Shown: piece by piece, positions 5,205 through 49,408 of the stretch | Numbering within the stretch: position 1 is the stretch's first letter | How the letters are laid out: each line of letters starts with the position of its first letter | NCBI RefSeq assembly: GCF_030013205.1 | Contig: NZ_CP122648.1 | DNA length: 64,000 bases | Strand: one strand, 5' to 3' | Origin: Escherichia coli | GTDB taxonomy: Bacteria; Pseudomonadota; Gammaproteobacteria; Enterobacterales; Enterobacteriaceae | Made by a program: the position numbers and the translations under genes | The notes under the pieces: model-generated | Database searches by the model: none | What the model was told of the DNA's origin: nothing | Seen by the model: only the letters and a program-made list of their open reading frames with translations

Positions 5205-6542
5205 TTAGTTTGGCAGCGTGCGATCTGGCGTCGTCACCGTACTGGCCGTTTGTGCCGCTGTACCCTGCGGCGCAGATTGCATCGGATGCGCAAGGAAATA
5301 ATTACGCAGGCCTTTGTAAATGGCTTCTGCCAGCTGTTGTTGGTAATCGTCGCTCGCCAGCAAACGTTCTTCGCTGTTGTTGCTGATAAAACCGGTTTCG
5401 ACCAGTACTGATGGGATATCCGGCGAGCGCAGAACGCCAAGGCTGGCGTGTTCTGGTCGACGTTTATGAATTTCGCCAATGCGTTGCAACTGACTGATCA
5501 TACTGGTCGCTACATCATACCCTACCCGCTGGGAATGACCGAACTGTAAATCCAGCACCGCCTGGCTTAAATAGGGGTCAGACTGACTGTTCGCCAGCAC
5601 ATCGCCCGCTCCGCCCAATAGCTCCGACTGTTTCTCATGCTGTTCCAGCCAGCTTGCCATCTCGCTGTTTGCACGACGGTTAGAGAGCACCCATACGGAA
5701 GCGCCAGTCGCACTGCGGTTTGGTGCGGCATCAGCGTGAATCGACACGAGGAAATTGGCGTTTTGCTTACGTGCCACATCGCTGCGCCCCATCACCGAAA
5801 TAAAGTAATCCCCATCACGAGTTAAAACGCCTTTAAACATCGGATCGTCATTGAGCAAAGTACGCAATTTACGCGCGATGGCGATGGTGACATTTTTCTC
5901 CCGCGTACCACCGGGGCCGATAGCGCCAGGATCCTGACCGCCGTGTCCGGCATCAATAGCGATGATAATTTTATCGCCTGTGTTAGCCGTCGCACGCGCT
6001 GCCGGACGCGTTACCGTATTACTGCTGATAACACCCGTAGTGCGGTTACTTTCCGTTTTAAACGGATTGCGCGCCGGTTCGCTGACGCGCGGTGCGACAA
6101 CCGCAGGCGTTTCAACGCGTTTCGCAACCACAGGCGGCGGAGGAGGCGGTGGCGGCGCATCGGCGTTAATCGTAAAGACGACAGTGTAATTGCTGCCATT
6201 CTGCCGCTTCACCGCTTCGGTTTTACCATTTTCGGTAAGATCGACCACCAGCCGTAGCGTTTGTGCATCTTTAGGCGTTCCAGAGCGAATCGCCTTCACC
6301 AGATTATTGCCGCTGAACAACAACGGCAGTCCCTGAATCACGCCCGTTTGTTTGATATCGAGCGCCACGGTGCGTTTGCTTTGATGGCTAAACGCATAAT
6401 CAGGATCGCCAATAAAACTCAACGTTATCCGCGCCTGTTGGTTGCCGTTAGAAACCTGAATATCAGAGAGCGTCGCGGCACCCACCGGCGCGCACAGCAG
6501 CAGCAACGTCGCTACCAACCAATTTCTGATGCGATACATCAT
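5205..6542 (-). CDS. amiB: N-acetylmuramoyl-L-alanine amidase AmiB
   Basis: 445 aa from internal Met ([16 protein letters not shown] signal peptide); amidase_3 core; contains an 8-proline run. Confidence 0.93.
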
Positions 6543-38438: not shown

Positions 38439-39014
38439 GTGCAACGTGAAGATGTACTGGGAGAAGCCCTGAAATTATTAGAATTACAAGGGATTGCCAA
38501 CACCACGCTGGAGATGGTTGCTGAACGTGTGGATTATCCACTGGACGAGCTACGCCGCTTCTGGCCAGACAAAGAGGCAATCCTCTACGATGCGCTGCGT
38601 TATCTTAGCCAACAGATAGATGTCTGGCGTCGTCAGCTGATGCTGGACGAAACGCAAACCGCCGAACAAAAGTTGCTGGCACGTTATCAGGCGTTATCGG
38701 AGTGCGTTAAAAACAACCGCTATCCGGGCTGTCTGTTTATCGCTGCCTGTACGTTTTATCCCGATCCTGGCCACCCTATTCATCAACTGGCCGATCAGCA
38801 AAAAAGCGCGGCCTACGATTTCACCCACGAACTGTTAACCACACTGGAAGTTGACGATCCGGCGATGGTAGCAAAGCAGATGGAACTGGTGCTGGAAGGC
38901 TGTTTAAGCCGAATGCTGGTGAATCGTAGCCAGGCGGATGTCGACACCGCACATCGGCTGGCGGAAGATATCCTGCGCTTCGCCCGCTGCCGCCAGGGTG
39001 GTGCTTTGACCTGA
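38439..39014 (+). CDS. yjdC: TetR-family transcriptional regulator YjdC
   Basis: 191 aa from GTG at 38439 ([32 protein letters not shown]-terminal HTH). Confidence 0.85.
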
Positions 39015-39120
39015 CAGAAACACAGAAAAGAAGCGATTTGCCGCAATCTTAAGCAGTTGAATCGCTTTTACTGAAATTAGGTTGACGAGATGTGCAGATT
39101 ACGGTTTAATGCGCCCCGTT

Positions 39121-39196
39121 GCCCGGATAGCTCAGTCGGTAGAGCAGGGGATTGAAAATCCCCGTGTCCTTGGTTCGATTCCGAGTCCGGGCACCA
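39121..39196 (+). tRNA. pheU: tRNA-Phe (GAA)
   Basis: GCCCGGATAGCTCAGTCGGTAGAGCAGGGGATTGAAAATCCCCGTGTCCTTGGTTCGATTCCGAGTCCGGGCACCA, 76 nt with GAA anticodon and CCA end. Confidence 0.97.
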
Positions 39197-39209
39197 AATT
39201 CATATCAAC

Positions 39210-39234
39210 GGACCTCCACGGAGGTCCGTTTTTC
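39210..39234 (+). terminator. pheU intrinsic terminator
   Basis: ggacctcc/ggaggtcc hairpin followed by GTTTTT immediately after the tRNA. Confidence 0.7.
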
Positions 39235-39393
39235 GTTTCAGAACACCATGATTTAAGTGTTCTTCCTCCAAATCAATTCTACCGAACTCAACCAAATTCT
39301 CCCCACATCAACCTCATTGTGTGGGTATAATTGCGGGTATACCCCAGTTCGACAGAATTTATACCCTCTTTAACGCATTCAGAAGGCTGAACT

Positions 39394-40656
39394 ATGGCAC
39401 TGACTGACGCAAAAATCCGGGCTGCAAAGCCCACTGACAAGGCTTATAAACTCACTGACGGGGCCGGCATGTTCCTGCTGGTTCATCCTAATGGTTCCCG
39501 TTACTGGCGTCTCCGCTATCGTATTCTGGGTAAGGAGAAGACTCTGGCACTTGGTGTGTATCCAGAAGTTTCTCTCTCCGAAGCTCGTACAAAACGGGAT
39601 GAGGCCCGAAAACTGATTTCAGAGGGGATTGACCCTTGCGAACAGAAAAGAGCTAAAAAAGTTGTCCCTGATTTACAGCTCTCTTTTGAACATATTGCAC
39701 GACGCTGGCATGCCAGTAATAAACAATGGGCACAATCACACAGCGATAAAGTACTCAAAAGCCTCGAGACACACGTTTTCCCCTTTATCGGCAACCGGGA
39801 TATCACAACACTCAGTACCCCGGACCTGCTTATCCCTGTTCGTGCTGCAGAAGCTAAACAAATTTATGAAATCGCCAGTCGTCTGCAGCAAAGAATATCT
39901 GCTGTAATGCGTTATGCCGTACAGTCTGGCATCATCAGATATAACCCGGCTCTGGATATGGCTGGTGCATTGACCACGGTAAAACGCCAGCATCGCCCTG
40001 CACTGGATCTTTCACGCCTGCCTGAACTTCTGTCGCGTATTGACGGTTATAAAGGCCAGCCTGTCACCCGACTGGCAGTTATGCTGAATTTACTGGTTTT
40101 TATTCGTTCCAGTGAACTCAGATACGCCCGCTGGTCTGAAATTGATATTGACAATGCCATGTGGACTATTCCAGCCGAACGCGAACCTCTGCCTGGCGTA
40201 AAATTCTCACACCGGGGCTCCAAGATGCGAACACCACATCTTGTGCCACTCAGCAAACAGGCTGTAGCCATACTGGCAGAACTACAGACATGGGCTGGTG
40301 AAAATGGTCTGATCTTTACGGGAGCACATGACCCGCATAAACCAATCAGTGAAAATACTGTAAATAAAGCCCTGAGGGTGATGGGGTATGACACAACCCA
40401 GGATGTCTGTGGCCATGGATTCCGTGCGATGGCATGTAGTGCGCTGATCGAATCAGGTTTGTGGTCCCGCGATGCTGTTGAACGTCAGATGAGCCATCAG
40501 GAACGTAACGGTGTACGCGCTGCGTATATCCATAAAGCCGAACATCTGGAAGAACGCCGGCTGATGCTACAGTGGTGGGCAGATTTTCTGAATGCGAACA
40601 GAGAGAAATGTATCAGTCCGTTTGATTATGCAAAGATCAACAATCCATTAAAATAG
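39394..40656 (+). CDS. P4-type tyrosine integrase
   Basis: 420-aa ORF MALTDAKIRAAKPTDKAYKLTDGAGMFLLVHPNGSRYWRLRYR with C-terminal catalytic region (HGFRAMA, Y in RAAYIH); 200 bp downstream of a tRNA gene; SD GAAGG. Confidence 0.92.
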   Translation: MALTDAKIRAAKPTDKAYKLTDGAGMFLLVHPNGSRYWRLRYRILGKEKTLALGVYPEVSLSEARTKRDEARKLISEGIDPCEQKRAKKVVPDLQLSFEHIARRWHASNKQWAQSHSDKVLKSLETHVFPFIGNRDITTLSTPDLLIPVRAAEAKQIYEIASRLQQRISAVMRYAVQSGIIRYNPALDMAGALTTVKRQHRPALDLSRLPELLSRIDGYKGQPVTRLAVMLNLLVFIRSSELRYARWSEIDIDNAMWTIPAEREPLPGVKFSHRGSKMRTPHLVPLSKQAVAILAELQTWAGENGLIFTGAHDPHKPISENTVNKALRVMGYDTTQDVCGHGFRAMACSALIESGLWSRDAVERQMSHQERNGVRAAYIHKAEHLEERRLMLQWWADFLNANREKCISPFDYAKINNPLK

Positions 40657-40819
40657 TAATAATCCCCGGGCAAAATGCCCGGGGTACTTTGAATGACTAT
40701 TTTTCTTTGGGCGTGATGAAGAAGATTGATGGTAAGACAAATTACTCCCGACTCTTACGTATTTTCATGGAAAGAAATCCCCCAATATCATCCATCGGGA
40801 TCGAGTAATAACCTGTAAT

Positions 40820-41005
40820 ATGCTGCAGGTTCCGACAGCGGCGGCAAATATGCAGCACATATTGTGCTCACTGATCGGCACCTGCCGTCTGAACAATGCG
40901 GAGTCAGAAAAATTGCTGCATTACGTCACAGATCATATGCAGGACTGGTCGGCAAACCGGGTACGCGATCTGTTGCCCTGGAAAGTTGATCTGACCTCTC
41001 AGTAA
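40820..41005 (+). pseudogene. IS66-family transposase C-terminal fragment
   Basis: 61-aa ORF LIGTCRLNNAESEKLLHYVTDHMQDWSANRVRDLLPW, paralogous to the C-terminus of the fragment at 41730-42251. Confidence 0.6.
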
Positions 41006-41069
41006 ATATCAATACGGTTCTGGCGAGCCGCTTACAATCGAACTGGGATACAGGGAGATAAAACAGACG

Positions 41070-41429
41070 ATGCAACTGAGCAGGCTGACGCTGAGAAGTA
41101 AAAAGCCGGAGCTTGTGGAGCAAGAGCTGTGGGGTGTCTTACTGGCTTATAATCTGGTGAGATATCAGATGATTAAAATGGCGGAACATCTGAAAGGTTA
41201 CTGGCCGAATCAACTGAGTTTCTCAGAATCATGCGGAATGGTGATGAGAATGCTGATGACATTGCAGGGCGCTTCACCGGGACATATACCGGAGCTGATG
41301 CGCGATCTTGCAAGTATGGGACAACTTGTGAAATTACCGACAATAAGGGAAAGGGCCTTCCCGAGAGTGGTAAAGGAGAGGCCCTGGAAATACCCCACAG
41401 CCCCGAAAAAGAGCCAGTCAGTTGCTTAA
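41070..41429 (+). pseudogene. transposase C-terminal fragment, IS4-like (family uncertain)
   Basis: 119-aa ORF with EQELWGVLLAYNLVRYQM motif recalled from IS4-family transposase C-termini. Confidence 0.45.
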
Positions 41430-41753
41430 CTGACTGGCATTAGGCCGCCGGGGGCGTTTTTTTACCACCGGGACTTCGGACATAACGGTGTTTTCAGTAA
41501 GTACGACAGGTACTGTGGAGGCACTCCCGTAAAGACGGGCATCAAGTTCCCGCTCCGACATACCTGCGGGCAGAGGCCATGAAAGGCCAGCTTTTCGGAA
41601 GCGCACGAACATACCACAAACTGTTGATTTTGGTACGCCCAGGCGACGTCCGGCCACAATCCGTGGTAAATGTTCTTCAAAGTGAAGACGTAAAGCTTCA
41701 GTGATCCAGGTCCGGTATTCCATACGATAGTGTCCATTAAAAATGATGGACAT
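41418..41753 (-). pseudogene. transposase N-terminal HTH fragment (family not assigned)
   Basis: 111-aa ORF with helix-turn-helix-like segment RRLGVPKSTVCGMFVRFRKAG; truncated. Confidence 0.35.
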
Positions 41754-42251
41754 TATTTTTGTGGAGCCGGAGGAAACACACCAGACTGTTTAAATGAGCC
41801 GGTTACCGAAATACGCGGGTTGCCGGTGTCTGAACGCCTGGCGGTCAGGCAAATGCAGAGTAAACCGCTACTGACTTCCCTGTATAAGCTGATGCAGGAG
41901 AAAGAACACACATTATCGAAAAAATGCCGTCTGAGAGATGCGTTCCGGTATATCCGGAAGCACTGGGTTGCGTTGTGCAACTTCTGTGATGATGGTCTGG
42001 CGGAGGCGGATAATAATGCCGCGGAAAGAGCGCTTCGTGCAGTCTGTCTCGGAAAGAAAAACTTTATGTTCTTCGGCAGCGATCACGGCGGCGAGCGAGG
42101 AGCACTGTTGTACGGGCTGATCGGCACCTGCCGACTGAACGGTATCGATCCGGAAGCGTATCTGCGCCATATCCTGAGCGTACTGCCGGAATGGCCTTCC
42201 AACCGAGTTGACGAACTCCTGCCATGGAACGTAGTACTCACCAATAAATAA
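41730..42251 (+). pseudogene. IS66-family transposase (TnpC) C-terminal fragment
   Basis: 173-aa ORF ending NNAAERALRAVCLGKKNFMFFGSDHGGERGALLYGLIGTCRLNGIDPEAYLRHILSVLPEWPSNRVDELLPWN, the conserved IS66 TnpC C-terminal signature; lacks the N-terminal catalytic part. Confidence 0.7.
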
Positions 42252-42385
42252 GCGTCAATACGGCACTCCGTTAACGCTTACGTTTAAGTCATAAAGCCAT
42301 GCAGAACGCTCACCTCCCAAGATCTTGGTTTTTATAAGGTGTAATGATAATGTAAGCTAATGTTTCACATGCCAAAGGAAACACC

Positions 42386-43714
42386 ATGAGCCACAGGGAA
42401 TTGTTCAGCGAATTTCTTGAAAATTTGAATCTTGACCTCAAACAGGCAAAAAAGATCAGCTATCACTATCGAAAAATAACCAAGTCATTAAATCTTGCGT
42501 TCAGAGGAACGAGTTCCCGGGTAGCAAACCGCTTGAAAGTGGGGTCAGTAGGCAGACATACCGCAATAAAAGGCATATCCGATCTGGATATGCTTTATAT
42601 TATGCCCCCCAATCAGTATGAATATTATAACCGTAAGGATAATGGTCAGTCTGCATTGCTTACAGATGTCAGAAACATTCTGGCGGAAGAATATCCTGAC
42701 CAGACTGTGAAAAAGGACAGACTGGTTGTTCAGATCATCTTTAAAAACTTTTATGTCGAGGTTCAACCTGTATTCAGACAGGATGATGACAGCTTTAAAT
42801 TCCCTGAAAGCTATAATGGAGGAGCATGGCGCATTACAAAACCTCTTCACGAAAAGGCGGCCATGACCGCATTTTCGCGAGATAAATCCAATAATCTGCG
42901 CAAGCTGTGTAAAATGATCAGAGCCTGGAAGAACCTGCATGGCGTCAATATGGGTGGCTTACTGATAGACACACTAGCGTATCGCTTTCTTTCATCAACA
43001 TCAGATTATGACAATACCGGAAATGGCAGCCTGGGAGCCCTCGCCAGAGACTTTTTTGAATATCTGTCAAATGAGGAGAGAAAGGAAAGGTATCTCGCGT
43101 TAGGCAGTAATCAGCATGTACGTGTTAAATCTCCCTGGTTTGGCCGGGCAGCGAAACACGCGTATGAATTATGTTGTGATGCCTTAGACGCTGAGGGGGC
43201 TGCCAGTGAAAATGACCGCTGGCGCAAAGTGTTCGGACGAGCCTTCCCCAGACGTAAAGTGGGTATTATGGAAGCCCGTCTTGGTCTGGAATCGCATGCG
43301 GCAGATGCTGTTCCCTGGACCGATACCGAAGAGTTTATAGAGGATAAATATCCGGTGGATATCAGGTACTCACTCAACCTTGACTGTACCGTAACCCAGG
43401 ATGGTTTCCCTCCCAGAAGCCTGAGGGAGATGCTTACCAGAAGATTCCGCCTCTCCGCTCGAAAATCTCTCCTTTTCCGGGCAGACTTGACAGAAATGGA
43501 GGCAGAGGAACCCTACACCGTTATGTGGAAGGTACTGAACGTGGGTGACGAAGCACGCAGAAGAAATATGATCCGGGGACAAATCGTTTCGGACGGCGGC
43601 TACTGTACGAAGAAAGAAACTACCGACTTCCGCGGAGATCACATGGTAGAATGCTATGTGATAAAAAATGAGGTTGTGGTTGCCCGGGCCCAGATTGAAG
43701 TTCCCATAAGCTGA
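42386..43714 (+). CDS. polymerase-beta-superfamily nucleotidyltransferase, SMODS/CD-NTase-like (candidate signalling nucleotide or oligonucleotide synthase)
   Basis: 442-aa ORF with SD AAAGGAA; NTase signature G-S-x10-D-L-D (GSVGRHTAIKGISDLD) near the N-terminus; stop overlaps the SD of the next gene. Confidence 0.6.
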   Translation: MSHRELFSEFLENLNLDLKQAKKISYHYRKITKSLNLAFRGTSSRVANRLKVGSVGRHTAIKGISDLDMLYIMPPNQYEYYNRKDNGQSALLTDVRNILAEEYPDQTVKKDRLVVQIIFKNFYVEVQPVFRQDDDSFKFPESYNGGAWRITKPLHEKAAMTAFSRDKSNNLRKLCKMIRAWKNLHGVNMGGLLIDTLAYRFLSSTSDYDNTGNGSLGALARDFFEYLSNEERKERYLALGSNQHVRVKSPWFGRAAKHAYELCCDALDAEGAASENDRWRKVFGRAFPRRKVGIMEARLGLESHAADAVPWTDTEEFIEDKYPVDIRYSLNLDCTVTQDGFPPRSLREMLTRRFRLSARKSLLFRADLTEMEAEEPYTVMWKVLNVGDEARRRNMIRGQIVSDGGYCTKKETTDFRGDHMVECYVIKNEVVVARAQIEVPIS

Positions 43715-43721
43715 GGTTTTT

Positions 43722-44297
43722 ATGACGCAATCAGAGATGCTGAAATTAATCGCCCGACATGGTTATAACGTTGGATTTGGCGCTAAGAAAAACTTTGCCA
43801 CCTATGATCTGATTTGTAAGGCATCCGGTTGGATTAGCTTTATTTCTCTTGCTGTCGGTGTGTTCGCCCTTTTTATTCCTGAGCTGGCCACAAACGTCAT
43901 TTCCGCGATATTAATTATATTTGGTGTTGCTACAATGTACATTCAGTTTTATGACTCGGAAAAGCAGAGTTATGAAAGTGCGGGGATTGAGCAGACCAAA
44001 ATTTTTAATGAACTTGAAGTCATCTACCGCAACGTAAAAAGCGATGCAAACTTTGACTATCAGCGTACACAACAATCCATCGACGCTATCATGTCCCGGT
44101 TTTACGGCACGGTCATCAGCAAACAGATCTTCGGAAGTAACTGGTACGCACATTATAAATTTTACTGTGAATTTGAAAAAGCATGGGTTGAAGAAGAGCT
44201 GAACCTGACACTGAAGGACAAAATCCCGCTTTCGCTCTGCTTTCTCGCCGGTCTGGCGATCATTTTTACTATAGCTGTCATCTGGAAAACGCCCTGA
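43722..44297 (+). CDS. 2-TM membrane protein, SLATT-like candidate effector
   Basis: 191-aa ORF starting 8 nt after the NTase stop; two adjacent hydrophobic helices (ISFISLAVGVFALFIPELATNVISAILIIFGVATMYI) plus a C-terminal hydrophobic segment. Confidence 0.6.
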   Translation: MTQSEMLKLIARHGYNVGFGAKKNFATYDLICKASGWISFISLAVGVFALFIPELATNVISAILIIFGVATMYIQFYDSEKQSYESAGIEQTKIFNELEVIYRNVKSDANFDYQRTQQSIDAIMSRFYGTVISKQIFGSNWYAHYKFYCEFEKAWVEEELNLTLKDKIPLSLCFLAGLAIIFTIAVIWKTP

Positions 44298-44848
44298 TGC
44301 TGCAGCCAATGAAAAATTCAGCAAGCTGACTGTCAAATATGCGATGTATAGCCGGTATCACCATCCAGTGTACGTTCTATAAGGGGGGCGCTTGGAAAAC
44401 GGGTAGAGTCAAGATGTGGCGCGGTAATTTTACAGGTCAGGCATATCTGTTGCCGCCTCTTTCGATTGGCGGTGCCTTACTGTCCTGACCATAAATCCTG
44501 TTTCCACACCCCGCTCATCGAAGCGGACATGCGCTTCTAACACATCCGGCTCTCGGACAGAATCATGCCTTCGCCCACGGAAACCTCTGCGGGAGCTTCG
44601 GTGCATATTTTCATGGAAGGGGATCACCCAATAACTTCCATCGAGATCGGGTCATAACGGCCAATCCGTGATCGAATAGAGCGGAATACGCACTCTGACG
44701 AACTGCTTACATTTAAACTAATTACAAACTATATAAATCCGCCTTGCTCATTCACAGGGTAGATATATTCTTACTTTTAATTTTATGTGTAATTAACTGA
44801 TGACGAAAAATGAATTGAACTGTAAATGCATATCTAAGTTTTTCATTC

Positions 44849-45574
44849 TTATGATGTACATAATACCTTAAAATTATCAACTAGCTGAGCATTAACCTCC
44901 ATCTGACTAATCCCCCATAATGCGGCTAACTGTTTCTCTGCAATCCCACTATCCCATGGCATTAGTGGGTCATTACGAAACTTAGCAAATGGCCCATCTG
45001 TTTCTGTAAGAATGCGTGATTTGGGTATTTTCAAAACTAAGGCCTTACCCTTTATTGTATCGAGCATAGCAGGCCCCACTGAGAACCAGCATCCTAAATC
45101 AATTGCCCTTTCAAGCTGCTTAGGTGTTCCAGTGAACCAATGCAATATTGCCACCCCATCGATATTTTCAATCTCATCAAGCACCGCTGATGCACTTCCC
45201 CGACTATGGATAGTCATAATCTTGCCACCAGCCCGATTTACACTGTTGAGAATGTGTCGGAACACTTTCAATTGAATATCCCAATGTTCTTTAAATCCCT
45301 GTCCACCATCAAGCCCTATTTCCCCTACATACTTAGTTTCCGAAAGCAATGAATCAAACAGGTCTAACTCATGCGATCTTTGATGCGCGATTTGAGGATG
45401 TAGCCCAAGAGCAGTTCGGATTCGTTGACTTTCTTTAGCCAATAAAGAAGTACCATGCCATGCTTTAGGTGTTGTTGTCACCGACAGAATATAAGTCCCT
45501 CGACGTTTACTTTCTTCAGCCACGAGGTCTGGCCGAGGATATAAGTCTAGATGACAGTGCATATCGATGCTCAT
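44849..45574 (-). CDS. qatD: QatD-like TatD-family metal-dependent hydrolase
   Basis: 241-aa ORF beginning MSIDMHCHLDLYP (TatD HxH motif); ATGA overlap with upstream qatC. Confidence 0.8.
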   Translation of the reverse strand: MSIDMHCHLDLYPRPDLVAEESKRRGTYILSVTTTPKAWHGTSLLAKESQRIRTALGLHPQIAHQRSHELDLFDSLLSETKYVGEIGLDGGQGFKEHWDIQLKVFRHILNSVNRAGGKIMTIHSRGSASAVLDEIENIDGVAILHWFTGTPKQLERAIDLGCWFSVGPAMLDTIKGKALVLKIPKSRILTETDGPFAKFRNDPLMPWDSGIAEKQLAALWGISQMEVNAQLVDNFKVLCTS

Positions 45575-46890
45575 ACTATGTTCTCACTCAGTAAATAGCT
45601 TTCAACCTCATCCAGGCCATCCTTAAATACTTGCTTGAAATTATCAAATTCTGCCGTAGGCAAAGGGCCACTTTTGGCAATCCATGTACCTATTTTCAAA
45701 GTCGATTTCTGCGTGATCGCAATCCTAAGGGCGATCAGGTCGTCCCTGCGATCTATTTCATTCATTACTTTAGCTAAGGACTGGAAAATATATTCAACAT
45801 CTCTACTAATTCCCCCTGCATGAAGTGATGCTCGTCGAATGATACACGGTATACATACCCCACATTGCTGCCCCATTCGTTTCCAATGACTGCAGGATAC
45901 TGTACTTTCCACAATTTTAGATAAGAGCTGCTTATTTGAACATTCGGAGATCATTTTTCCTTTTGTCTTAAACTGATATGGATTGATTATTTGACAAGAA
46001 ATACCGAGCGCATCAAAGATCTTTTGTATGCTCGTAATAAAATGTGGATGTGTTGTTCGTGTGCTCAGCGAACCTATCCGCCGTGGAGTAAGTGGTGCAT
46101 TTAATGAGATAAATCCATTTTCAGGTACGAACAAATCAATCTTTTCTTGTTGAGATATCTCTTGTACGGCACAAGCACCTACGGCCGCAAAGGCAAGAAA
46201 ATTGAGGCTACGAGTTCGCATCGTAATATCAGTCACGCCTTGATAAATGTGTGGGTCAGCATTAATCTCAAAGCGCGAAAATTGGCCACTTAATTTTTCA
46301 GCAATCTGATCTTGACGAGACTTATCCCCCTTATAAGCATGACTAACCAAAAGTGGAGCGCGCCCTGCAGCCAGAAGATCTATTGCACCAATAGCTGAAT
46401 CCAGACCTCCTGAAAATAGGCTGACACAGTCAAGCCCTTTTAGCTTAATCAGACGATGCCTTGAATGCTGGCTATAAGGCTCTGGCGGTGCATAACCATC
46501 GTCACAAAATTCGAAATCCCAGATGTCTCCACTAAGAAAATGCAAAGCACTCTCAAGTTCTTTCTTTAGACTAATCCATCTGGATGGTTCATGAAGGGGG
46601 AGTCGTAACGACAATTGGCGGGTCCAACCATCCTCGGAACTTTCACGCTGAACGAAAGTATCTGCTGCAGTTACTGCTAATGCAACACTCAGAAAATCCA
46701 TGACCTTAGCTGGAAGCTGTACTCCCAAACGTCTGATCCGATCAATCGCAGGATTCCCGATAACAGATATATCTCCGCGCCTCTGACCACTTAATCCATA
46801 TAGCTGAACAGGTAACACTTTCTCACTTGCTGGCGGCAAATGGTGATGTTTATGATGGAAAACTAATTGTGTCACTGGTATGCCTCCCAT
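45571..46890 (-). CDS. qatC: QatC-like QueC-family PP-loop ATPase
   Basis: 439-aa ORF with PP-loop SGGLDS (DCVSLFSGGLDSAIGAIDLL); overlaps qatB by 19 nt. Confidence 0.8.
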   Translation of the reverse strand: MGGIPVTQLVFHHKHHHLPPASEKVLPVQLYGLSGQRRGDISVIGNPAIDRIRRLGVQLPAKVMDFLSVALAVTAADTFVQRESSEDGWTRQLSLRLPLHEPSRWISLKKELESALHFLSGDIWDFEFCDDGYAPPEPYSQHSRHRLIKLKGLDCVSLFSGGLDSAIGAIDLLAAGRAPLLVSHAYKGDKSRQDQIAEKLSGQFSRFEINADPHIYQGVTDITMRTRSLNFLAFAAVGACAVQEISQQEKIDLFVPENGFISLNAPLTPRRIGSLSTRTTHPHFITSIQKIFDALGISCQIINPYQFKTKGKMISECSNKQLLSKIVESTVSCSHWKRMGQQCGVCIPCIIRRASLHAGGISRDVEYIFQSLAKVMNEIDRRDDLIALRIAITQKSTLKIGTWIAKSGPLPTAEFDNFKQVFKDGLDEVESYLLSENIV

Positions 46891-47624
46891 TCTTGCCAGG
46901 CCTCAATAATGGCCTGACGTTCAATTTTTACCATTTGGTTTCGTGTGAACGATCTTATGTTACCGGCAAGTTTTGGTGCCATATGTTTATCAACAACAAC
47001 TTTAATCAATTCCCGGAGTTCAATTTCTGCATGAATTGCCTTTGAAGGTGTATCTGCTTTGTTCCATGCCCTATTAGAATCCATTACCATCTGAAGGAAA
47101 ATACTTTCCGCTAGATAACCAATCATTGTGTCAACAATCACACCATCAGTTATTTTTTGAGGATCGAAAATTTCTACGCCATCAAGAGCCTCCACTAAAG
47201 CATGGTTCATGGCCGCACAGATCTTTTCTGAGTCACCATCCTGTGATGTTAAAGCTTGAGCAATAGTTGATATTGCTATTTCGCATGGAAGGCCTGCCAA
47301 ACTGCCCAAATCGATGCTTGGTTCTCCGGGAGCCGAAGGCATTCCCACTAAAGCCCCAAATAATTCGGCCCCAGCTTGCGTGACACTCCCTAATCGCCGA
47401 GCAGCGTTACTGCTCCCTCCGGAGGCTTTTCGCGCGTAGTGCCCTATGGCTTTTCTGAAATCTGCTCGATTTCCATTTGATACCGCATTTCCCAACGATT
47501 CTCGAAATGGCGCAAACCTCCTTTCTTGCGGCGAGGGTAACGGTTGCTGTGGCTGATCATCAGCCCATGGTGGAACCAGCGGAGAGCCACCTCCTGGACC
47601 TTTACTTGATTGTGATGTTCCCAT
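46872..47624 (-). CDS. qatB: QatB-like protein (no recognisable domain)
   Basis: 250-aa ORF whose ATG overlaps the qatA stop (TAATG); position between KAP NTPase and QueC-like genes. Confidence 0.7.
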   Translation of the reverse strand: MGTSQSSKGPGGGSPLVPPWADDQPQQPLPSPQERRFAPFRESLGNAVSNGNRADFRKAIGHYARKASGGSSNAARRLGSVTQAGAELFGALVGMPSAPGEPSIDLGSLAGLPCEIAISTIAQALTSQDGDSEKICAAMNHALVEALDGVEIFDPQKITDGVIVDTMIGYLAESIFLQMVMDSNRAWNKADTPSKAIHAEIELRELIKVVVDKHMAPKLAGNIRSFTRNQMVKIERQAIIEAWQEWEAYQ

Positions 47625-49408
47625 TAAGCGTCCTTATTCCATTGTTCATCTTTTAATGCTGCAGTCATCCACGCTGGTCGTTTCATCCCCAACTGTAATT
47701 CCTGTAGATAACGAATTAATATGCTGGCTGCATCTGTTGAGTAGCGGGCCAACAGACATGCGCCGGAAAAGCCTCTGGGCTTACGATCCCAATCTGATAC
47801 CTGCCGTAACTGGTTAATTAAACCTTCCATTACAGGTATTTGCTCCTCACGAGGAAGTGCTTTCAAAAGGTTTTCTGCTGTAGGAGAACTAGTGTTTTTC
47901 AATTCAATTAGTGCATTTAGTACTTCCCGTCCAGATGGCGATAAACCAACCACATATGCACCTATTGGCATAGTTTCTCGGGACAGATATATGGCGGCCC
48001 TTAAGTCAATCCCACCAAGACGAGGTTCAAGTTGGGCCCATTGACTGATGAAAGATTTAGTCGTTGGACTATCAGTCCATGTCTTTGGTGCATCAGTAGG
48101 TATTTGACCGCCATTATCGTCAAGCTGTTTAAGTATCTGGGGAACACCTTGTTCAATATCCACGAGATGATATAAATCAGCGGTGCCATCCACTCCAACA
48201 CAGCGTTCAAAAATTACTAGCTTAGTAATAATTGCTTCATCCAAAGGCATTGCTCGTCGCTTCGCAATTTGAGATCGCATTTTCACAACATTCAACAAGC
48301 GTTTAACGATCCTGGGATTACCATGAATAATTGGAGAGTTGGCTAAAATGGGAGCAATACGGTCAGCACGCGCAAACGCCAGCGCGAGGTTGCTATCATC
48401 CGCTTCACCAGTCATTTTTAAGGCCTCCTGACGTGAGATTGGTTCATCTTTCCAGGATTGCTGTAACGCCTTCTCTAAGCCCTCACGGAGCATAGTTATT
48501 TTTTCGCCTTCTAAGCCATGTTCAATGGCATAAAGCATGAACAGATACGAACGGATCTCACGGACCCCAGCCTTAGGCACCCGAATAGGAACCTGGATTA
48601 GCTTATCCAGATAATCTATTTGATGGCGCTGTGATGCCCCTTTGAAGTAATCAGCCACAGAAGAGCGAATCATGTCCTCATCTGCTGCAATAATAAAGGC
48701 TGTATTAGTCAAGAAAAGGAATAGCCTGATAGCTTCAAGTGTATGGATAGCATTGGCAGGGAGACAGCGGTCTAGGTTATCTATTACCACAATGAGTGGC
48801 TTTCCAAGTTCTTCTAGAATTTCCCCATATTCCTTACGAAAGGCATCAATCTGCTGAGGGGGGCTTTTTTTTGTTTGTGGTTTAATCAAACCACAAGCAG
48901 TTTCTTTACCTTCTTTAGCTATATTGCCTAAAGCCTCATACTCTTCCTGACTCTGGATGCCATCGGTGATATTTCTTAATGCACCAATCCCCCTAGAAAG
49001 CAAACCGCCAGTAGGTAATCCTGCCATTAAAGCTGTACCCTCAGCTAGTAATCCCATAGCTCTAAAACCATCAACTCGACTAAGGAGTCTCTTAGTTTTT
49101 GATATAAGGGTAGAATTACCTTCAGCAGCTTTTGTCAATTCTGTAGCGATGACTTCAAGAAGTGCGGCACGGGCGTCGTCGTACCCCTGATAGAGCCAAG
49201 AGTCAAAATTGATAACAATCCAATCTTTGTCGTCTTGCTCAAGTTTTTGCTCTATCAGTTTTAACAGAGAGGATTTACCTGCCCCCCAGTTTCCAAAAAT
49301 TCCGATAGATACTGGTAACATATCTTTCGTGGTAAGTACATCCACGGCTAACTGAGATACTTCACCAAAATTTAGGTAGTCTTCTGATGACTCTTTGTCT
49401 GACCACAT
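47624..49408 (-). CDS. qatA: QatA-like KAP-family P-loop NTPase
   Basis: 594-aa ORF with Walker A GNWGAGKSS near the N-terminus and Walker B-like VVIDNLDRC; SD AAGGA upstream of ATG at 49408. Confidence 0.8.
   Translation of the reverse strand: MWSDKESSEDYLNFGEVSQLAVDVLTTKDMLPVSIGIFGNWGAGKSSLLKLIEQKLEQDDKDWIVINFDSWLYQGYDDARAALLEVIATELTKAAEGNSTLISKTKRLLSRVDGFRAMGLLAEGTALMAGLPTGGLLSRGIGALRNITDGIQSQEEYEALGNIAKEGKETACGLIKPQTKKSPPQQIDAFRKEYGEILEELGKPLIVVIDNLDRCLPANAIHTLEAIRLFLFLTNTAFIIAADEDMIRSSVADYFKGASQRHQIDYLDKLIQVPIRVPKAGVREIRSYLFMLYAIEHGLEGEKITMLREGLEKALQQSWKDEPISRQEALKMTGEADDSNLALAFARADRIAPILANSPIIHGNPRIVKRLLNVVKMRSQIAKRRAMPLDEAIITKLVIFERCVGVDGTADLYHLVDIEQGVPQILKQLDDNGGQIPTDAPKTWTDSPTTKSFISQWAQLEPRLGGIDLRAAIYLSRETMPIGAYVVGLSPSGREVLNALIELKNTSSPTAENLLKALPREEQIPVMEGLINQLRQVSDWDRKPRGFSGACLLARYSTDAASILIRYLQELQLGMKRPAWMTAALKDEQWNKDA

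Follow-up and report, generated by a model that had tools for sequence, protein, structure and literature searches.

The terminal inverted repeats (TIRs) of IS21-family elements are composed of two repeats with a spacing of about 23 bp, and two repeats are required at an IS21 end (PMC10122671). ISEc12, a member of this family, is 2581 bp long, contains istA-istB, starts with TGCGTATTTTCATGAAAGGAGATCAC, and has 5-bp target duplications in three copies. In the E. coli DNA analyzed here, a 64-kb stretch called the window below, two 57-nt segments have in common with ISEc12 the TG(C/A) terminus and the GATCAC/GATCGG cores starting 24 nt apart (the terminus and the first core are altered in the left copy, as described below), and 52 (right copy) or 47 (left copy) of the 57 positions. 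Unlike ISEc12, the locus lacks istA/istB, a matching ISEc12 right end, and a target duplication. A second element of the family, ISSso4, is represented by positions 44659/60 to 44692, which are 100% identical to its last 33 nt, the terminal CA included. Only the outermost repeat (R1) of ISSso4 is present, however, and its inner side meets an ISEc12-type left TIR (L-TIR) instead of istB.

As in composite transposons, IS-derived ends flank cargo at this locus, but they are two direct left ends, they are separable, and there is no cognate transposase nearby. The 91-nt unit formed by the right copy and the ISSso4-like end shares the left-end-plus-right-end layout of MITEs and differs from them in the absence of target duplications and of a multi-site distribution. 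The IS "graveyards" of genomic islands are of the same kind as the present case, with short IS ends left by nested insertions and deletions, here amid IS66 and IS4 fragments, and no material difference from them was found. The repeats are ordinary IS relics, the scar tissue of an E. coli tRNA-Phe island.

The repeat pair and the surrounding island

The preliminary description of this DNA reported an imperfect 52-bp repeat in the same orientation, and alignment of 40761-40812 with 44607-44658 reproduced it (43/52 identical). A repeat search returned 40760-40812 and 44606-44658 (53 nt, 83%, 44/53), while the full register begins 5 nt before the 52-bp segments, with TACGT at 40756 and TGCAT at 44602, and pairs 40756-40812 with 44602-44658 (46/57). 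This pair was the strongest direct repeat within 38500 to 47000. In 20 shuffles of the same 8.5-kb region, the best ungapped 53-mer had 30 to 32 identities compared with the 44 observed, and the flank-inclusive pairwise alignment that had been proposed as a check, taken with these shuffles, places the similarity above chance (44/53 versus at most 32/53). No similarity was found upstream of both copies in the alignment with flanks, and the similarity between the copies fades past 40812/44658. The longest exact run common to both, read from the sequence, is 13 nt. Both copies are left ends in direct orientation, 3.8 kb apart. The features of the region are as follows.

39121-39196, plus strand: tRNA-Phe gene, the island integration site (ARAGORN; Rfam tRNA, 68 bits)
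39394-40656, plus strand: P4-type tyrosine integrase of the island (Pfam Arm-DNA-bind_3, Phage_int_M, Phage_integrase)
40756-40812, plus strand: left copy, probable decayed ISEc12-group L-TIR (L1+L2); 47/57 to ISEc12, 49/57 to the L011 variant
40825-41036, plus strand: ISCro1-like IS66 right-end fragment (TnpC C terminus and right inverted repeat, ending CGCTTAC)
41037-41442, plus strand: IS4 right-end fragment (transposase C terminus and inverted repeat; NCBIfam transpos_IS4_1, C-terminal)
41440-41806, minus strand: ISCro1-like IS66 left-end fragment, TnpA N terminus, inverted
41808-42283, plus strand: right-end fragment of an ISEc23-like IS66 element, immediately upstream of the CBASS module
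42386-43714, plus strand: CBASS oligonucleotide cyclase, SMODS nucleotidyltransferase with AGS-C sensor
43722-44297, plus strand: SLATT_6 two-transmembrane CBASS effector
44602-44658, plus strand: right copy, ISEc12-like IS21-family L-TIR (L1+L2); 52/57 to ISEc12, 92.5% over 53 nt
44659-44692, plus strand: ISSso4-like IS21-family right inverted repeat (R-TIR), terminal 33-34 nt (ending GGAATACGCA); 100% to the ISSso4 right end
44849-49408, minus strand: QatABCD defense operon (PADLOC QatD, QatC, QatB)
44849-45574, minus strand: QatD
45571-46890, minus strand: QatC
46872-47624, minus strand: QatB
47624-49408, minus strand: KAP-type NTPase (QatA)

The tRNA-Phe gene lies in the pheU context, with dsbD and a TetR-like gene upstream (K-12 synteny dsbD-dicD-tRNA-Phe). 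The window contains its 3' end only at 39174-39196, with no second copy that might mark an island boundary. The 57-nt repeat does not resemble the tRNA-Phe 3' end, and the two copies were ruled out as attL/attR of the island. Homology to the regions downstream of other integrases extends to about 40748-40755 and then stops, the break at 40755/40756 falling exactly at the predicted IS terminus.

The map of IS fragments can be read directly from the matches. The segment at 40825-41036 is 87.7% identical to the ISCro1 end (Pfam DDE_Tnp_IS66_C), and that at 41440-41806 is 90.2% identical to the ISCro1 left end (NCBIfam IS66_access_TnpA, E value of 5.8e-29). Both the PGAP annotation in strain ML35 and matches to IS4 agree with an IS4 origin of 41037-41442, and 41808-42283 lies within a 97.6% match to strain TW10690, in which ISEc23 is intact (Pfam DDE_Tnp_IS66, IS66_C). 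The cyclase (Pfam SMODS, 8e-40, and AGS_C, 4e-45; PADLOC Cyclase, 9e-177) and the effector (Pfam SLATT_6, 5e-63; PADLOC 2TM effector, 2e-82) are adjacent, and they are the only genes that separate the IS fragments from the Qat operon. As judged from these domains, the bracketed cargo is a predicted type I CBASS, consisting of cyclase and effector without Cap2/3 or HORMA/TRIP13 genes. The Qat block is annotated likewise by PGAP in ATCC 11775 and TW10690. Of the placement given earlier, the position of the left copy ahead of an IS66 fragment stands (12-nt gap, with the fragment starting at 40825). The right copy had been put just after the two-transmembrane gene; it begins 309 nt past the stop of that gene (44297) and is therefore not immediately behind it.

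Assignment of the copies to the IS21 family

The alignment of each copy starts at nt 1 of ISEc12 and shows its identity with IS21-family L-TIRs directly; both appear to be dead L-TIRs of the ISEc12 group, each comprising the L1 and L2 IstA-binding repeats. The right copy retains an intact TG terminus and both GATC cores and matches the family pattern exactly, and the 24-nt distance between the starts of its GATCAC and GATCGG cores fits the two-repeat architecture of IS21 TIRs (PMC10122671). Over 57 nt, identities were 52 for right copy versus ISEc12, 47 for left copy versus ISEc12, 49 for left copy versus the L011 variant, and 46 for left versus right, the lowest of any pair in a matrix of five family members. 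Neither copy is identical to ISEc12, indicating that their parents were relatives of it and not ISEc12 itself. The repeat segment is dispersed and was located at 5933 places, spread over 2521 of the 5426 E. coli genomes; those sampled lay at the outer edge of an intact ISEc12, some 190 nt ahead of istA, interrupting rhsB or trbA.

The left copy is the more decayed. It begins with TA (40756) where TG is expected, which indicates a mutated terminus, and its L1 core reads AATCCC instead of GATCAC, while L2 is kept (GATCGA). It is cut off between 40813 and 40824, and the internal IS66 fragment starts at 40825. A search for its parent element did not recover one: matches in a plasmid collection reached at most 85% identity, and scanning 100,044 species-representative genomes with a strict IUPAC pattern, which was probably too strict, returned one contig (labelled as a Collinsella MAG) with an ISEc12-type end. 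With a best match of only 49/57, the assignment of the left copy to the ISEc12 group rests on about 83 to 87% identity over 57 nt, and we regard this membership as probable.

The right copy is joined to the inner side of the ISSso4-like fragment, of which the final CA is at 44692; the comparator right end, located downstream of istB in strain GF60 and present also in plasmid copies, matched at 100%. The outer flanks are ACTCT at the left stub, TTCGG at the right stub, and CTCTG at the right-end fragment, and no 5- to 6-bp target duplication was found in the flanks of either stub or of the right-end fragment. The only flank in common is the 4-nt CTCT at 40752-40755 (left stub) and 44693-44696 (right-end fragment), which resembles a shared target duplication.

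The preliminary description had taken both segments to be remnants of one IS-derived sequence of IS66 type. That they are IS relics was borne out. That they are the same sequence was not, as they form the least similar pair (46/57) and occur independently. An IS66 origin might be suggested by the IS66 fragments found 12 nt past the left copy and again upstream of the CBASS module, but blastn with the intact ISCro1 and most of ISEc23 gave no match over 40756-40812 or 44602-44658, and IS66 homology was confined to 40825-41036, 41440-41806, and 41808-42283. Megablast matches to IS66 elements likewise start only at 40825. Together with the alignment of both copies from nt 1 of an IS21-family element, this makes an IS66 origin almost certainly incorrect.

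When the IstA and IstB proteins of ISEc12 and ISSso4 served as tblastn queries, no istA or istB was detected in the window, and the sole match was to the IS66 TnpA fragment, through weak HTH similarity; additional ISEc12 or ISSso4 ends were also absent from the window. The minus-strand open reading frame at 41418-41753 has weak HTH similarity to IstA. It was considered as an IstA N terminus and rejected as the IS66 TnpA N terminus (NCBIfam, 5.8e-29; 90% to the ISCro1 left end).

Several other identities were tried and dropped. A domain-V-like hairpin on the minus strand at 44480-44600 was considered as a group II intron fragment, but an Rfam scan of 38500-46000 gave only tRNA-Phe. A coding origin of the copies was rejected, as six-frame translation gave no consistent frame and the 9 differences showed no codon periodicity; the open reading frame at 44430-44627, which overlaps the right copy, had no Pfam match. 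An RNA or hairpin role was also dropped because, on inspection of the sequence, the ATGGAAG/CTTCCAT inverted repeat of the right copy had no compensatory changes in the left copy.

Occurrence of the two copies in other genomes

The context of the left copy (the integrase block) was found in 61 genomes and that of the right copy (the CBASS-Qat block) in at least 243, while the whole 4.2-kb arrangement with both copies was present in 49. In ML35 the left stub occurs alone, and in ATCC 11775 and TW10690 the right stub and right-end fragment occur without the left stub. The copies are thus directly observed to be separable, and the two stubs were probably acquired separately, each with its own block. 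Solo ISEc12 L-TIR stubs also occur elsewhere, as a 63-nt stub between trbA and traQ on the F-type plasmid pAPEC-O1-ColBM and in CP4-like islands. The CP4-like islands also contain an independent fusion of an L-TIR with a right end that has the same junction point as the one described here, which hints that such fusion is less random than simple decay.

A search for the module beside intact IS66-family elements, which had been suggested as a check, was positive. In TW10690, the CBASS module is flanked on one side by an intact ISEc23 and on the other by an intact ISCro1, which is a simple insertion bearing its own target duplication. A link between IS66 elements and CBASS exists, with the ISEc23 right-end fragment adjoining the module upstream, but it is separate from the repeat.

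Alternative explanations and proposed history

It had been suggested that the repeat pair could mobilize, delete, or duplicate the nucleotidyltransferase/two-transmembrane module. This is unsupported on five grounds: the ends are direct left ends, the left terminus is mutated, istA/istB are lacking, no empty site or deletion product was found, and the maximal identical run is 13 nt. A chimeric query of the two flanks, able to span a gap of up to about 630 bp between them, reached 80% coverage nowhere in 5426 E. coli genomes, and neither an empty site nor a stub-to-stub deletion product was found. With respect to a composite transposon, the ends are direct instead of inverted and are not co-inherited (61 and at least 243 genomes, both in 49). 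There is no evidence that the pair mobilized the CBASS module. The position of direct repeats 3.8 kb apart around the module could also mean that the copies are duplicates of one another, for example target-site-like repeats or the two ends of a duplicated segment, and that they recombine to delete or amplify the module. Against this, each copy is closer to copies elsewhere than to its partner (46/57, the least similar pair), the flanks beyond 57 nt are unrelated, and the predicted deletion product was found in 0 of 5426 genomes. Efficient RecA recombination in E. coli usually needs roughly 20 to 30 bp of identity, which the longest exact run of 13 nt does not reach, and we regard duplication as extremely unlikely.

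The remaining alternatives concern the ISSso4-like end. The interval 40756-44692 might be a decayed IS21-ended pseudo-compound transposon, with the left stub as L-TIR and the ISSso4-like end as R-TIR, that carried CBASS and generated a CTCT duplication. Its two ends, an L-TIR at 40756 and an R-TIR that ends at 44692, have the correct relative orientation with CTCT just outside both, and IstA uses non-canonical end pairs in vitro (PMC10122671). However, the R-TIR/CTCTGACG junction is present in about 190 genomes without the left stub, including ATCC 11775 and TW10690, and so arose before the left one or independently of it. The right end has one repeat where two are required (PMC10122671), the left terminus is TA and not TG, and the empty site was found in 0 of 5426 genomes. 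CTCT, at 4 nt, is also shorter than the target duplications of ISEc12 (5 bp, three copies) and ISSso4 (6 bp, GACTGA, one copy), and such a match would arise by chance at about 1/256 per register, which is non-negligible given the choice of registers. This reading is very unlikely. There is a slim chance that the 91-nt unit 44602-44692 is a MITE-like IS21 element beside CBASS, the left copy being a piece of another. Its TG...CA termini and inward-facing ends, the similar layout in CP4-like islands, and the presence on plasmids of a mini-ISSso4 of about 68 nt (left plus right end) are compatible with this. The unit nevertheless lacks a flanking target duplication (TTCGG versus CTCTG), its ends belong to two different IS species, with a single repeat in the right one, all matches of at least 95% (about 259 records) are explained by the single CBASS-Qat context (about 244 genomes), and in CP4-like islands the counterpart takes the place of about 155 nt of a DUF905 gene and is not a clean insertion. 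It is similarly improbable that the 44602-44692 fusion reflects recurrent transposase- or microhomology-driven recombination between the ends of different IS21-family elements, or a mini IS21, and that the left stub and the 44692 end, with CTCT beside each, are then the marks of an IS21-ended unit that once moved CBASS.

The explanation that we consider very probable is that the repeats are two solo L-TIRs from two separate ISEc12-group elements, that they are inert, and that their bracketing of CBASS is a by-product of block assembly. A first ISEc12-group element would have inserted downstream of the island integrase, at a distance of about 100 bp, and IS66/IS4 rearrangements may later have deleted its body beyond about nt 57 to 65. 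A second ISEc12-group element would have inserted downstream of the CBASS (cyclase plus SLATT) module, where it presumably survives as the 57-nt L-TIR fused to the last 33 to 34 nt of an ISSso4-like right end. The integrase block and the CBASS-Qat block would then have been joined, each already bearing its own stub, which would account for the shared orientation and the bracketing. The stubs are likely to be inert, given that there is no nearby transposase, that one terminus is mutated, and that the copies share too little exact identity to recombine efficiently by homology.

For annotation, the repeat should be recorded as IS21-family (ISEc12-like) terminal-repeat remnants and not as IS66; otherwise it has little significance, and it should not be used to classify the CBASS cyclase/SLATT module as transposon cargo. 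The stitching of blocks is the usual mode by which E. coli defense islands are reshuffled. The tRNA-Phe defense island is such a mosaic, in which the integrase and CBASS-Qat blocks were inherited separately and stitched together via IS-rich junctions.

The direct repeat and its surroundings

A repeat search of the window recovered direct repeats at 40760-40812 and 44606-44658 with 44 of 53 positions identical, and this pair ranked top among the direct repeats of 38500-47000. The imperfect 52-bp direct repeat of the preliminary description was thus borne out, with 43/52 identity over 40761-40812 and 44607-44658; in 20 shuffles of 38500-47000, the best ungapped 53-mer match was 30 to 32, against 44 observed. 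When the copies were aligned with 100-nt flanks, as that description had proposed, similarity was restricted to the core. Comparison with related elements extended the repeat by 5 nt on its upstream side, so that it truly starts at 40756 (TACGT...) and 44602 (TGCAT...), and in this full register the left and right copies were identical at 46/57 positions, with a longest common exact run of 13 nt.

The anatomy of 39121-49408 was derived from ORF and tRNA calls, Pfam, PADLOC, and blastn against ISCro1 and ISEc23. In this tRNA-Phe island (pheU context), a type I CBASS (SMODS+AGS-C cyclase, SLATT_6 effector) is stacked directly against the QatABCD defence operon.

Features of the region (window coordinates, strand, description)
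39121-39196, +, tRNA-Phe
39394-40656, +, P4-type integrase
40657-40755, +, conserved integrase-downstream sequence, ~100 nt
40756-40812, +, IS21-type left terminal inverted repeat (L-TIR) stub, left copy
40825-41036, +, IS66 right-end fragment
41037-41442, +, IS4 right-end fragment
41440-41806, -, IS66 left-end fragment, inverted
41808-42283, +, ISEc23 right-end fragment
42386-43714, +, CBASS cyclase (SMODS + AGS-C)
43722-44297, +, SLATT_6 2TM effector
44298-44601, ~300 nt of DNA between the SLATT_6 effector and the right stub
44602-44658, +, IS21-type L-TIR stub, right copy
44659-44692, +, ISSso4-like IS21-family right end, last 33-34 nt (100% identical to what follows istB in strain GF60)
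44849 onward, -, QatDCBA

Family assignment of the repeat

The copies had been attributed to an IS66-type element. In a blastn comparison of 40600-44900 with two IS66-family elements of strain TW10690, ISCro1 (intact) and ISEc23 (most of its length), neither copy was covered by IS66 homology, which was confined to an ISCro1-like right end (40825-41036, 87.7%), an inverted ISCro1-like left end that takes in the N-terminus of TnpA (41440-41806, 90.2%) and an ISEc23 right end (41808-42283, part of a 97.6% match running to 44435). Megablast matches to IS66 elements also start at 40825, and the IS66 and IS4 fragments were confirmed by Pfam and NCBIfam. The proposed IS origin held, but the family is IS21 instead. 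The ORF at 41418-41753 (- strand), tried as an IstA fragment, was rejected because it represents IS66 TnpA. The N-terminal TnpA fragment (41430-41693, - strand) was weakly similar to the N-terminal HTH of ISSso4 IstA (29.5% over 88 aa, E=1e-6), which suggests a DNA-binding module shared by the IS66 accessory TnpA and IS21 transposases.

When the right copy served as query in a sensitive search, it matched at 5933 chromosomal and plasmid places; 2521 of the 5426 complete E. coli genomes had at least one, and a single genome had as many as 16. Three of these places were inspected. At two, the match formed the outer boundary of an intact annotated ISEc12 (IS21 family), ~190 nt upstream of istA, with rhsB or trbA interrupted; the third was a solo copy with an intact ISEc12 ~1.4 kb further on. 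Target duplications of 5 bp in three ISEc12 copies (AGGGG, ACAGT, and ACTTT) set the element length at 2581 bp, starting with TGCGTATTTTCATGAAAGGAGATCACTCAATAACTTCCATCGAGATCGGGTAATAAC and ending with ...CACGGTAATACGCA. The ISEc12 left end aligns with both window copies from nt 1, and the GATCAC and GATCGG cores are 24 nt apart, matching the published architecture of IS21-family ends, in which two direct repeats (L1/L2) ~23 bp apart are both required by IstA, together with a terminal CA (PMC10122671). From this alignment and spacing, the repeat is identified as the complete L-TIR of IS21-family elements. Decay has gone furthest in the left copy, with terminus TA rather than TG and L1 core AATCCC rather than GATCAC. 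Homology with the integrase-downstream regions of other islands (APEC E956, K-12) breaks exactly at 40755/40756, the position of the predicted IS terminus.

Similar ends were seen elsewhere. Plasmid pAPEC-O1-ColBM carries a solo 63-nt ISEc12 L-TIR stub (L012, 3003-3065) between trbA/artA and traQ of its F-type tra region, the same site region that an intact ISEc12 occupies in another plasmid (L005). The sole species-representative genome contig matching a strict L-TIR pattern, JAIJJM010000013.1 (L014, 11594-11641), is labelled Collinsella sp. MAG, and its ISEc12-type left end is exact; in an actinobacterial MAG, this suggests contamination with an enterobacterial contig or an error in binning.

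Inheritance of the copies and possible activity of the pair

The right copy matched ISEc12 at 52/57 positions, a variant at locus L011 at 51/57, and the solo copy of CP4-like islands at 50/57; values for the left copy were 47/57, 49/57, and 48/57, respectively. The 46/57 between left and right was the lowest of the compared pairs. Each was also found without the other: strain ML35 (L008) has the identical integrase and IS-debris block with the left stub at the other tRNA-Phe locus (pheV context), without the right stub and with its cyclase cut short by ISEc52/IS30, while ATCC 11775 and TW10690 have CBASS, right stub, right-end fragment, and Qat without the left stub. In the E. coli collection, 61 genomes had the left context and at least 243 the right one; the complete 4.2-kb arrangement was present in 49, each at ≥99.9% identity. 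The idea that both are remnants of the same sequence is contradicted by these comparisons; the copies have no special relation and are inherited separately.

Mobilisation or deletion of the module through the repeat had also been proposed, and several results argue against any activity of the pair. Both copies are left ends in direct orientation and so do not form a transposon-like pair; the 64-kb window contains no istA/istB and no further ISEc12 or ISSso4 ends. For RecA-dependent recombination, an exact run of 13 nt is short. With the left flank (40640-40755) and the right flank (44697-44848) fused into a chimeric query, the search found neither an empty site nor a stub-to-stub deletion product in 5426 genomes (0 places at ≥80% coverage); the latter was also detectable because pieces up to ~630 bp apart were merged. 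The left stub is correctly oriented relative to the right-end fragment, whose last base is 44692, and CTCT flanks both. This pairing is considered chance, since the right-end fragment/CTCTGACG junction occurs in ~190 genomes without the left stub, duplications are 5 bp (ISEc12) or 6 bp (ISSso4), the right end keeps only one of two required repeats, and the left terminus is mutated.

Intact IS66-family elements around the module elsewhere had been suggested as a thing to look for. In TW10690 (L007), its upstream neighbour is an intact ISEc23, and an intact ISCro1 follows the SLATT gene; the ISEc23 right end adjoins the module in every variant seen. The IS66-CBASS association is real but separate: this ISCro1 arrived by simple insertion, has a target duplication of 8-9 bp to itself (corresponding to 44427-44435 of the window), and is unconnected with the 52-bp repeat.

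Fused IS21-family ends

The right stub and adjoining fragment form a 91-nt unit (44602-44692), with TG...CA termini and no target duplication around it, in which an ISEc12-type left end (57 nt) is joined inner-to-inner to an ISSso4-type right end, of which the terminal 33-34 nt are present; every occurrence of the unit lies in the CBASS-Qat spacer. In CP4-like islands (971 genomes; L003, 3501-3594, E. coli IGC_RcoliRes_1.1), a solo ISEc12-like L-TIR has a similarly fused layout with an identical junction point, ATAAC(C)GG followed by CCAA, but what follows the junction there is the ISSso4 left end in reverse complement (29/34), not an ISSso4-type right end. Relative to an alternative allele (L015), this copy replaces ~155 nt of a DUF905 gene, which marks it as a deletion scar and led us to reject a clean MITE insertion. 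An identical 14-nt string, GGCATATCTGTTGC, occurs on the upstream side of the right stub (44437-44452) and on the downstream side of the solo stub (L003, 3631-3646); coincidence or common ancestry of the surrounding spacer may explain it. ETEC plasmid NZ_CP024246.1 (L002, 2966-3034) and many other plasmids carry a ~68-nt mini-ISSso4, in which the outermost ~35 nt of the left end and ~33 nt of the right end meet around a TTGGCCAA palindrome, and hundreds of plasmid records match the 35-nt right-end piece. The recurrent junction may arise from microhomology between sub-repeats in the TIRs of two adjacent IS21-family elements.

On these comparisons, the copies appear to be independent IS21-family relics rather than remnants of a single sequence, with no evidence of mobilisation or deletion. 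Features of this kind are already known: the repeat is ordinary scar tissue left by IS elements where blocks of a tRNA-Phe defence island meet.
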